Assembly: GCF_003790525.1 (NCBI RefSeq)
Contig: NZ_CP033635.1
DNA: 64,000 nucleotides
From: Escherichia coli
Lineage (GTDB): Bacteria; Pseudomonadota; Gammaproteobacteria; Enterobacterales; Enterobacteriaceae
Reading direction: 5' to 3' (one strand)
Position 1 is the first letter of the stretch; every line of letters begins with the position of its first letter. The translations under genes and the position numbers were made by a program. Positions 4,396-21,052 of this stretch are shown piece by piece. The notes under the pieces are model-generated. The model ran no database searches, was not told the origin of the DNA, and saw nothing but the letters and a program-made list of their open reading frames with translations.

Positions 4396-4887
4396 TTAAT
4401 CGCGGAAGTTTTTGAACTGGAACGGCTGACCGAGATCGCCCCCACGTACCATCGCCATAACAGCCTGCAAATCATCACGAGATTTACCCGTTACACGGAT
4501 CTCATCGCCCTGAATTTGCGCCTGCACTTTCAGTTTGCTGTCTTTAATCATCTTGACGATTTTCTTCTGGGTCGCGCTCTCAATGCCCTGTTTCAGTTTC
4601 GCTTCCACAAACCAGGTTTTACCGCTATGAACGATATTTTCCGGTACATCCAGTGAACTGCCTTCAATGCCGCGCTTCAGCAGCTTGGCACGCAGAATAT
4701 CCAGCAACTGATTGACCTGGAAATCGGACTCGCTCAACACTTTGATGGTTTTGCTGGCGTCGTTCAGCTCAAATGAGGCTTCAACATTACGGAAGTCAAA
4801 ACGGGACTCCACTTCGCGGCTCGCGTTATCGACCGCGTTACGTGCTTCCTGAAGATCAACTTCAGAGACAATATCGAAAGATGGCAT
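4396..4887 (-). CDS. yajQ: Nucleotide-binding protein YajQ (UPF0234)
   Basis: [19 protein letters not shown]... matches YajQ; start at ATG 4887 rather than the track start at 5055. Confidence 0.9.
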
Positions 4888-15993: not shown

Positions 15994-16479
<486 letters not shown>

Positions 16480-16593
16480 TTACCCTGAACTGACGATACA
16501 ACAAAGGCGCAACGCTTTTGAGATAAAGGATCGATGCTTTCACTGCTTTTACCCTCTACCATTAGGCTAATTGCGACGAGAAAGGGACGACCT

Positions 16594-16722
16594 ATGAATA
16601 CTAACGTTTTTCGACTGCTCCTGCTGGGAAGCCTGTTCAGCCTTAGCGCCTGTGTGCAGCAAAGCGAAGTGCGGCAGATGAAACACAGCGTCAGCACACT
16701 GAACCAGGAGATGACGCAACTC
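16594..16722 (+). pseudogene. yajI: 5' fragment of lipoprotein gene yajI, interrupted by an IS200/IS605-family element
   Basis: MNTNVFRLLLLGSLFSLSAC lipoprotein signal; the frame continues into IS-derived sequence after codon 43 (MTQL, 16711-16722). Confidence 0.75.
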
Positions 16723-16733
16723 ATTGACATCCT

Positions 16734-16753
16734 CCACGCCCTGAAGGACGTGG
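16734..16753. repeat. Subterminal hairpin at the tnpB-proximal end of the IS element (right-end type)
   Basis: ccacg / cgtgg stem with loop ccctgaagga, about 11 nt inside the inferred end. Confidence 0.6.
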
Positions 16754-16766
16754 ATCCCTGCTACGT

Positions 16767-17975
16767 TCAGGCTGTCGCCTGAATCATTTCGGTGGGTTCC
16801 TGCTTCAACGGGCGGCCTGACTGCACCATCCCTCCACAGGCAAGAACGGCGTGCCCCGCCGCTAAAATGTTACGAGCGCCATTTACATCGGCGTTCGCTG
16901 TATATCCACATACCTGGCATCTGAATTGACTTTGTGACAGGCGATTTTCTTTCGCTGTATGACCACAGCACGTGCAACGCTGGCTTGTGTACGCTGGCGG
17001 AACAGCAAGCACCTGACCGCCACGCCAGAGCTGCTTGTACTCAAGCTGGCGGCGCATTTCATACCAGCCCTGATCCAGTACCGAACGGTTTAAACCTGAT
17101 TTTGCCCGGACATTGCGTCCCGGCTGGCTGACCGTACCCGCTGCTGACTTTGACATGTTGCTGACCTTCAAATCCTCAATGACTATCATTGCGTGGTTTT
17201 TGCTGACGGTCGTTGTGACTTTGTGAAGGTAGTCCCTGCGGATATTTGCGATACGGGAATGCAGTCGCTGTATTTTGCGTTTCTGCTTCTGCCAGTTATT
17301 GCTGAATTCGACCTTGCGGCTTAACTGTCGCTGAAGTCTCGCCAGCGTCTTCTGGTTTTTCTGAAAACTGTTTACAGGCTCAAAGACTGTGCCATCTGAC
17401 AGCGTGGCGAGTTTAGCCACGCCAGCATCCAGCCCGACCATTGATGCTGAAGGGTGAACCGGAGTGGATACTTCACTTTCTGTCTGAATACTGATGTACC
17501 ACTTACCGCAGGACTGGCTGACAGTGACATTTTTCACAACACCCGTGACCTGGCGGCTGTTCCGGTAGCGCATCCAGCCCAGTTTCGGCAGAAAAATACG
17601 GCTGTTTTCCTGATCGAGCTTAACGCCCTGCGGGTAGCGGAATGCATCATTCTGTCCCCGCTTTTTGAATCGGGGAAAAGCAGCCCGCTTCTGGAAGAAG
17701 TTTTTGTAAGCCCGCTCAAGGTCTTTCAGTGACTGTTGCAATGGCTGTGAGGGCGAATCTTTAAGCCATTGCGTTCCAGTGGCGTTTTTCCACTCAACCA
17801 GCCAGGAAGCCATTTTCCCGTAAGGGATGTATTTATTACCGGCCTCATGATTCTCATTCTGAAGCGCCAGAGCACGATTGAAAACGAAACGACATGCGCC
17901 TGCGAAGCGCCTCATTTCATGCTCCTGTTGACCACCGGGTCTTAACTGGAATTTAAATGCCTGTAGTCGTTTCAC
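16767..17975 (-). CDS. tnpB: TnpB (OrfB) RNA-guided endonuclease of an IS200/IS605-family element
   Basis: 402 aa; RuvC-like motifs ([23 protein letters not shown]) and a C-terminal CxxC...CxxC zinc finger; N-terminal KFQLRP...RFVFNRAL helix; GTG start at 17975. Confidence 0.88.
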
Positions 17976-18045
17976 AGGTCAAATTATATTTTGGTCTGTG
18001 AAAAAAGAAACCGATATCCGGCGTGGAAGGCATTGTGTTTTCCTG

Positions 18046-18420
18046 ATGCATGTTCACCTGGTCTTTGTCCCAAATACCGACGCCAGATTTTTGACCATGA
18101 CGCGACAGAAAAACTACGCACTTACTTTTCAAATGTATGTGCTGATTTTGAAGCTGAACGGGTTGAAATGGATGGCGAACCAGATCACGTCCATTTGTTA
18201 ATTAACTATCCTCCCAAACTGGCGATATCCAGTCTGGTAAACAGCCTCAAAGGTGTATCGGGTAGGTGACTGCGACGAGATCGACCAGATATTGCAGTCA
18301 GGTATTACTACAAAGGCGTTTTGTGGAGTCCTGGCTATTTTGCCAGTAGCTGCGGAGGTGCGCCAATATCCGTCATCCGCCAATACATTGAACAACAGCA
18401 AACACCTGGTCAGGTGGAAA
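18046..18420 (+). pseudogene. tnpA: IS200-type HUH (Y1) transposase tnpA, disrupted by at least two frameshifts
   Basis: Conserved segments are split across three frames: MHVHLVFVP (frame of 18046), PKYRRQIF...EPDHVHLLINYPPKL...SLKGVS (frame of 17991) and WSPGYFASSCGGAPISVIRQYIEQQ (frame of 18321). The first shift coincides with the aaa run at 18071-18073. Confidence 0.75.
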
Positions 18421-18434
18421 ACCGCGCCTTATAT

Positions 18435-18454
18435 CCCCGCCCTGAAGGACGGGG
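18435..18454. repeat. Subterminal hairpin at the tnpA-proximal end of the IS element (left-end type)
   Basis: ccccg / cgggg stem with the same ccctgaagga loop as at the other end, about 19 nt inside the inferred end. Confidence 0.6.
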
Positions 18455-18472
18455 TTTTACGGCGCACCGGAT

Positions 18473-18880
18473 AAAGAAACCGTCAAAATCACTCAGCAAA
18501 ACAGGCTGAATGCAAAATCCAGCAGTGGGGTTTACCTTCTGCCTGGAGCGAAAACACCGGCAAGACTGGAAAGCCAGATCGGTACTTTACGTATGTCGCT
18601 AGTGAATATTACGCATGATACAGATGGCACCACCCTGACGCTACGTATTCAGGGCGAGTCGAATGACCCCTTGCCCGCATTCAGCGGAACTGTTGAATAT
18701 GGGCAAATTCAGGGAACAATAGACAACTTTCAGGAAATCAATTTGCAGAATCAATTGATTAATGCCCCTGCCAGCGTCCTCGTCCCCAGCGATGTTGATA
18801 TTCCGTTACAGTTAAAGGGGATTTCTGTAGAACAGTTAGACTTTGTACGTATCCACGACATTCAACCTGTTATGCAGTAA
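18473..18880 (+). pseudogene. yajI: 3' fragment of yajI downstream of the IS insertion
   Basis: Frame reads ...ETVKITQQNRLNAKSSSGVYLLPGAKTPARLESQIGTLRMSLVNITHDTDG... to a stop at 18878-18880; out of frame with the 5' fragment because of the insertion. Confidence 0.7.
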
Positions 18881-20535: not shown

Positions 20536-20850
20536 TTACCAGTGACGGCGAGGTTCCATCAGCTGATGAAGAATGCGCGCAATGAGAATGTCATCGACTC
20601 TTATAACGTAATAAACAGTGTGAAACCTAAATGCGATCTTCTTTACCTCTGGAATCGCATCATAGTCTTGCCCTATCTCGGGCATTTGAGAGAGTGTATC
20701 CAGAAAAATGCCGAGAGAGTCGGTATAGCGATCCGCCTGCTCCTCACCAAACTTTCCCAGCGTGTAGTCATAGATCCCTCTGAAATCTTCAACAGCTTTT
20801 CCGCTAAGCTTATACACGATGTTTTTGCTTCCTTTCTGCTGCGATATCAC
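20536..20850 (-). CDS. ParE/RelE-superfamily type II toxin
   Basis: About 100 aa with a ParE-like profile (KNIVYKLSGKAVEDFRGIYDYT ... RFHTVYYVIRVDDILIARILHQ); only in-frame start is GTG at 20850, overlapping the antitoxin 3' end by 41 nt, so the start is uncertain. Confidence 0.65.
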   Translation of the reverse strand: MISQQKGSKNIVYKLSGKAVEDFRGIYDYTLGKFGEEQADRYTDSLGIFLDTLSQMPEIGQDYDAIPEVKKIAFRFHTVYYVIRVDDILIARILHQLMEPRRHW

Positions 20851-21052
20851 GAAGCGTCATCGAACTTTCACCGCTCTCAAGACCTTCAATAACAGCATTT
20901 CTGACAGCTTCATCCCTGGATTCTTGTTGTTCCAATAGACGAAGCGCTGAACGCATTACTTCACTGGCCGAGCCATAACGACCAGACTGGACCATCCGTG
21001 TAATAAAACTATCTAATTGTTCGCCAACGCTTACTGAGGTAATTTTGCGCAT
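20810..21052 (-). CDS. ParD/CopG-like ribbon-helix-helix antitoxin
   Basis: 80 aa, ...SFITRMVQSGRYGSASEVMRSALRLLEQQE... typical of the ParD antitoxin family; ATG at 21052 with ggagat Shine-Dalgarno; immediately upstream of the ParE-like toxin. Confidence 0.7.
   Translation of the reverse strand: MRKITSVSVGEQLDSFITRMVQSGRYGSASEVMRSALRLLEQQESRDEAVRNAVIEGLESGESSMTLRDIAAERKQKHRV

Follow-up and report, generated by a model that had tools for sequence, protein, structure and literature searches.

A transposase gene with several lesions in the IS609 element that splits yajI of Escherichia coli

In the window, which is the whole stretch of 64,000 nucleotides of E. coli DNA analysed here, a mobile element lies between nrdR and tsx, and its transposase gene, tnpA, cannot be read in a single frame. 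The locus therefore raises the question of which changes broke tnpA, whether they are real, and whether the element can still move. An earlier note on this DNA had taken tnpA for an inactivated transposase gene whose decay began with the loss of one A from a run of A's, had placed a second frame change further on, and had allowed for a sequencing or assembly error. The identity of the gene, here assigned to the Y1/HUH class, its inactivation and the single-nucleotide deletion stand. We are highly confident of a different account of the rest: tnpA carries three independent disabling lesions, which are real inherited alleles, most likely shared by conversion or recombination, and the element would be immobile without TnpA from outside.

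Window positions 16700-18600 match the Escherichia coli SMS-3-5 chromosome (NC_010498.1, 457001-458901, reverse strand) at 100% identity. The element splits the lipoprotein gene yajI, and its exact junctions were obtained by aligning both of them to the unbroken yajI of strain ZJ3920 (Table 1). That comparison shows the empty site parted between CTCA and ATAAAG with no target-site duplication. Copies labelled in RefSeq as "IS200/IS605-like element IS609 family transposase" are 97-98% identical to the window element, and by these labels it is assigned to IS609; it is the only such copy in the window. The yajI insertion junction was found in 340 of 5,426 complete E. coli genomes, indicating that yajI is inactivated in a sizeable lineage. 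Elsewhere in the window, at 20536-21052 on the minus strand beside yajD, two small overlapping ORFs of 104 aa and 80 aa look, by eye from the ORF list, like a putative toxin-antitoxin pair, a ParE/RelE-type toxin with a ribbon-helix-helix antitoxin.

Table 1. Coordinates of the element, its genes and lesions, and the flanking yajI fragments (window positions).
Feature	Position	Strand	Basis or remark
yajI 5' fragment (DUF3251/SadB-YajI lipoprotein), truncated by IS609	16594..16723	+	RefSeq SMS-3-5 annotation; ZJ3920 yajI comparison
IS609 copy (IS200/IS605 family), 1,747 bp	16724..18470	.	junctions from empty-site alignment
Subterminal hairpin, right end (RE), beside tnpB 3' end	16733..16754	-	single-strand DNA fold: 9-bp stem, TTCA loop, z = -3.2
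tnpB (insQ), intact, 402 aa, RNA-guided endonuclease family	16767..17975	-	ORF list; Pfam/NCBIfam; RefSeq WP_000826423.1
tnpA pseudogene (Y1/HUH transposase), 143 codons in intact copies	17983..18413	+	codon-by-codon comparison with strain S56; RefSeq note
Lesion 1, start codon ATG to ATT	17983..17985	+	comparison with intact copies
Lesion 2, 1-nt deletion	between 18069 and 18070	+	GTC ACC AAA to GTC CCA AAT; A of Thr30 gone
Lesion 3, nonsense codon TGA; TTA (Leu96) in intact copies	18267..18269	+	between HUH motif and Tyr135
Stop-codon change: CAG; TAG in intact S56 and FG31	18411..18413	+	frame continues to TGA 18507-18509
Subterminal hairpin, left end (LE), beside tnpA	18435..18454	-	single-strand DNA fold: 8-bp G+C stem, TTCA loop, z = -3.0
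Flanking ATAA (TTAT on tnpB-sense strand)	18471..18474	-	flank table; empty site
yajI 3' fragment	18471..18880	+	RefSeq annotation; empty-site alignment

Every IS200/IS605 family feature that we tested is present: a Y1 transposase (here a pseudogene) with HUH and tyrosine codons, tnpB, hairpins, and no duplication of the target. With one base restored, the tnpA translation matches Pfam Y1_Tnp over 121 of 121 positions (E = 7.7e-41) and NCBIfam transpos_IS200 with E = 2.1e-42, values that place the similarity far beyond chance. The tnpB product matches the Pfam profiles OrfB_IS605, Cas12f1-like_TNB and HTH_OrfB_IS605, as well as NCBIfam guided_TnpB (E = 1.6e-115). The two genes are divergent, tnpA on the plus and tnpB on the minus strand, and their start codons are 7 bp apart. 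In the RE and LE hairpins the stems are nearly the same and the loop is TTCA, and terminal inverted repeats are absent. At 16724 the terminus reads ...GATGTCAA, this end closing with ...GTCAA. At the other end, ATAA/TTAT adjoins the tnpA side of the element at all seven insertion loci compared (7/7), and TTAT is presumed to be the target or cleavage site. A further hairpin, predicted by folding at 16766-16783, overlaps the tnpB stop codon. An Rfam scan of 16400-18800 returned sub-threshold matches only, none of them in tnpA (HgcC, 23.8 bits against 50; RAGATH-18, 28.1 against 44.9; sot0042, 17 against 88). These matches sit at 16711-16894 on the minus strand, at the tnpB 3' end and the right end, where the guide (omega) RNA of TnpB would be expected.

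To define the lesions, the intact tnpA of S56 (143 aa, WP_000604942.1) was used as the reference and compared codon by codon. The true start of tnpA is 17983, and the ATG at 18046 is Met22; the loss of the start codon had escaped the earlier note. Reading from the ATG at 18046 gives MHVHLVFVP followed by nonsense, and a move to the -1 frame is needed to read KYRRQIF (18072-18092), so the proposed split of HVHLVFVP and KYRRQIF between frames holds, and the deletion falls within about 3 nt of the place that had been given. The break near 18070 is thus confirmed, although its triplets lie 1-2 nt from the stated positions, cca at 18070-18072 and aaa at 18072-18074. The second frame change, suggested at about 18270-18320, is absent. 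One frame contains both ORF 17991-18269 and ORF 18321-18509, and the segments ...SLKGVSGR and LRRDRPDIAVRYYYKGVLWSPGYF... are parted solely by the in-frame TGA at 18267-18269; translated continuously, the region reads ...SLKGVSGR, a stop, and then LRRDRPDIAVRYYYKGVLWSPGYFASSCGG....

The change of the terminal stop codon has a separate consequence, as the last ORF passes the end of the element into yajI, as far as 18509. This position is polymorphic among IS609 copies, being TAG in S56 and FG31 and CAG in most others. In the CAG copies the ORF crosses the end hairpin into flanking DNA, and RefSeq labels them "missing C-terminus"; some are otherwise undamaged, as in O157 at yfeD and in PRO_A at ytfB.

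The three lesions were then set against the catalytic residues. The HUH histidines H69/H71 (in DHVHLL) and the catalytic Tyr135 (in RQYIEQ) were mapped by alignment to IS608 TnpA (PDB 2a6m), and their codons are readable in the window. The frameshift precedes both, and the TGA falls between the two. Among the surviving ORFs none contains both the HUH motif and Tyr135, and active TnpA therefore cannot be made from the window copy. A functional transposase gene would have a start codon and a single uninterrupted ORF over the HUH motif and the tyrosine; the window copy has neither. RefSeq labels tnpA "frameshifted; internal stop" in SMS-3-5 and in independent assemblies, and the decayed gene, already known as an annotated pseudogene, is an ordinary example of its kind.

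The identity of the base lost at codon 30 bears directly on how the deletion arose. According to the earlier note, a run of four A's lost one A by replication slippage, and this was the first step of inactivation. Adding an A to AAA does restore the frame and yields VPKYRR, which fits the family consensus (P-K-Y/H-R-R in IS608 and in Sulfolobus proteins), and the deletion is the sole lesion in one copy elsewhere, GF4-3. Yet neither AAAA nor CCA AAA stands at the site in any IS609 copy examined. Undeleted copies instead read GTCACCA(A/G)ATAC (V-T-K/R-Y) in 12 of 12 alignments, and in the 5,426 complete genomes the two undeleted forms, searched as exact 33-mers, are found at 4,696 and 1,277 places (5,973 together). 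The exact window sequence results when ACC loses its A but not when the intact AAA loses one, and the lost A has C's on both sides, outside any homopolymer. Because the ancestral sequence is GTC ACC A(A/G)A, homopolymer slippage is not supported, and we hold it to be very unlikely. A templated origin of the deletion from a quasi-palindrome was also considered and set aside, as no improved palindrome follows from the deletion (GGTCTTTGTCACCAAATA, inspected by eye). That inactivation begins with the deletion is likewise not supported: the lost start codon comes first in reading order, the TGA allele is about ten times as widespread, and yajI copies with a stop codon and no deletion exist. In intact copies, TTA stands in place of the TGA. 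For a frameshift near a short run of one base, comparison with an undeleted copy should thus come before slippage is invoked.

The deletion creates C_CCA_AAT at 18069-18075, a heptamer that fits the X_XXZ_ZZN pattern in the zero-frame register, though only formally. Ribosomal frameshifting by -1 at this heptamer, together with read-through of the UGA, might still yield TnpA at a low level: the zero-frame codons GTC CCA AAT put the heptamer in register, a -1 shift would enter the KYRR frame, and five loci carry the deletion allele. Against this, the window copy has no ATG start and meets the TGA 66 codons downstream, and recoding would not rescue it. Further disabling lesions are carried by eight of the nine sampled deletion copies, which means that the downstream frame is not preserved. 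The ratio pN/pS over 21 sampled copies is 1.65 for tnpA and 0.33 for tnpB, rough values, as the base-by-base reading covered 22 tnpA copies of about 10,400 and many of the 22 were picked for the deletion; it suggests relaxed constraint on tnpA and some constraint on tnpB. The efficient -1 motifs of E. coli are X_XXA_AAG, and the C_CCA_AAT class is not among them (PMC4066793). We sought a measured frameshift value for C_CCA_AAU in Sharma et al. 2014 (PMC4066793) and found general rules only. The site thus has neither an open, conserved downstream frame nor a heptamer of an efficient class, and expression of TnpA by this route is even more improbable than slippage. Copies in which the deletion is the sole lesion, such as GF4-3 at arsR-dinQ, could in principle hold an attenuated tnpA from which -1 frameshifting gives full-length TnpA (T30P, with K31 or N31), an idea to which we attach just as little weight. 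If true, the IS200/IS605 family would gain its first transposase under frameshift control, which might partly account for the presence of the allele at five loci.

That the lesions are errors of sequencing or assembly, with the gene intact in the organism, has next to no chance of being right: single-base indels are a common assembly error, which is only a general possibility, and against it stand no fewer than 60 complete genomes, assembled independently in many laboratories, that are 100% identical over 585 bp with every lesion, a deleted base outside the homopolymers where such errors concentrate, and the same three tnpA lesions in a second IS609 copy of SMS-3-5, at yfeD-gltX. The 585-bp query spans all of tnpA and the yajI junction; 60 of the 60 listed assemblies match it at 100% identity, IAI39 and CE10 included, and identity is 99% or more in 179 records. 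A 32-mer spanning the deletion was found at 298 places in 213 genomes, distributed over five loci. The TGA allele, which the ydcO copy of K-12 also has, was found in 2,599 genomes at a total of 3,142 places. The lesions are genuine alleles in hundreds of genomes, and the pseudogene annotation should stay.

While each lesion is real, the order in which they arose does not read as a simple series. IS609 tnpA occurs at about 10,400 places in 4,993 genomes, and with the sample described above the frequencies of alleles by locus are rough. The five loci of the deletion are yajI, yfeD-gltX, arsR-dinQ, ytfB-TetR and ydcO, where it sits on differing haplotype backgrounds, as would fit concerted evolution or gene conversion among the copies. 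There it occurs with an ATG or an ATT start, and with TGA, with TAA at codon 76, or with no nonsense codon, the last in one copy, GF4-3. All four combinations of deletion or no deletion with TGA or TTA were seen, and a simple parsimony order of the lesions was dropped for that reason. Eight yajI copies were sampled in which one base of the junction flank is different from that of SMS-3-5; all have a stop codon (8/8) and none has the deletion (0/8). Five of these eight have TAA at codon 76 and two have TGA at codon 96, as aligned; the eighth is known from its annotation alone ("internal stop", not frameshifted). Three other yajI copies do have the deletion, E09, AF39 and PER13, of which PER13 came from the search for the deletion allele. 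The deletion is linked to A at 18073 and G at 17998 in nine of nine copies, and AF39 differs from the common yajI type in a contiguous patch, 17921-18073.

A similar pattern appears within one genome. Between the yajI and yfeD copies of SMS-3-5 there are 21 differences over the tnpB part and 2 over the 716 bp of the tnpA part (Fisher p about 0.001), while yfeD-locus copies from different lineages have about 26 differences in the tnpA part. Across all copies synonymous diversity is lower in tnpA than in tnpB, and the Fisher contrast is weaker evidence of conversion for that reason. Since the lesion combinations vary by locus and the SMS-3-5 copies share one tnpA haplotype, conversion or recombination is the most likely explanation. 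Ectopic gene conversion would have carried dead tnpA alleles from one IS609 copy to another, and ordinary recombination from one strain to another, instead of their being acquired serially at yajI. It is less probable that the identical deletion arose recurrently. As GF4-3 has the deletion as its sole disabling lesion, the deletion may have been the first hit in a donor lineage.

Can the element still move? The SMS-3-5 chromosome has two IS609 tnpA copies, at yajI and at yfeD-gltX, and both are dead. Taken together, these would make yajI::IS609 immobile unless TnpA is supplied from elsewhere, a statement that covers the chromosome. The exact intact TnpA protein is present on at least 1,000 contigs elsewhere, so live IS609 copies exist. 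We had considered ydcO-ydcL as the place of the second SMS-3-5 copy and discarded it, the copy being located at yfeD-gltX. In SMS-3-5, ydcO is split by IS4 (NC_010498.1, 1745117-1747765), and the adjoining ydcO-ydcL site, which holds IS609 in K-12, is without it. The gene order of this region suggests an inversion relative to the K-12 map.

Decay is not confined to tnpA. The tnpB gene is intact in 17 of the 21 sampled IS609 copies, and in some lineages it decays too. A premature stop near its C-terminus (codon 386; 385 aa annotated) is present in some yajI copies, namely E09, AR_0372 and ECOCN22, and at yfeD, in STLEFF_29 and SMS-3-5, tnpB is interrupted by two stops or by a 2-nt insertion. 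At 17976-17990, two substitutions, G to T at 17985 and C to T at 17989, abolish the tnpA start and at the same time give rise to TATAAT a short way upstream of the GTG of tnpB, on the strand of that gene. A sigma-70 promoter scan of 17800-18520 returned no sites and lent no support to the idea, since dropped, that a tnpB promoter has been adjusted through the deletion or the altered tnpA start codon.

The literature on IS609 that we found consists of routine mobile-element listings and two papers on K-12 (PMC2891674, PMC5009759), and a search for insQ/TnpB returned nothing relevant. The K-12 element, at ydcO-ydcL, comprises insQ/tnpB and a tnpA pseudogene (yncK in PMC2891674). It has been reported not to transpose owing to its stop codon (PMC2891674, PMC5009759), and mutation-accumulation lines gave no new IS609 insertions (PMC5009759). 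The significance of the present copy is small, IS609 being well known and largely inactive in E. coli. At the nucleotide level the K-12 and window elements are about 98% identical over 1,747 bp. They share the divergent tnpA and tnpB, the ends, the TGA at Leu96 and the CAG at the stop position. Unlike the K-12 element, the window copy lies in yajI and has, in addition, the 1-nt deletion at codon 30 and the ATT start.

The structural and mechanistic model of the family is IS608 (ISHp608) of Helicobacter pylori (PDB 2a6m, 2vhg), to whose TnpA the IS609 protein aligns over residues 16-141 with E = 2e-19. In this alignment H69/H71 of IS609 correspond to H64/H66 of IS608 and Tyr135 to Tyr127. Like IS608, IS609 has subterminal hairpins, no inverted repeats, no target duplication, a fixed tetranucleotide flank, and TCAA at its other end. 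In IS608 the flanking tetranucleotide is TTAC and the other end TCAA; the IS609 flank is TTAT, and tnpA is dead in the window copy. The two genes are divergent in IS605, as they are in IS609, and in tandem in IS608. Clusters of proteins at 90% identity hold 21,309 TnpB members against 1,024 TnpA members. Dead tnpA alleles appear to have been spread by conversion while tnpB stays intact, which fits tnpB outliving tnpA. The same pairing of an intact tnpB with a decayed tnpA is found in the tnpB-only and tnpA-defective elements of the IS200/IS605 family, among which the window copy is typical, with nothing distinctive.
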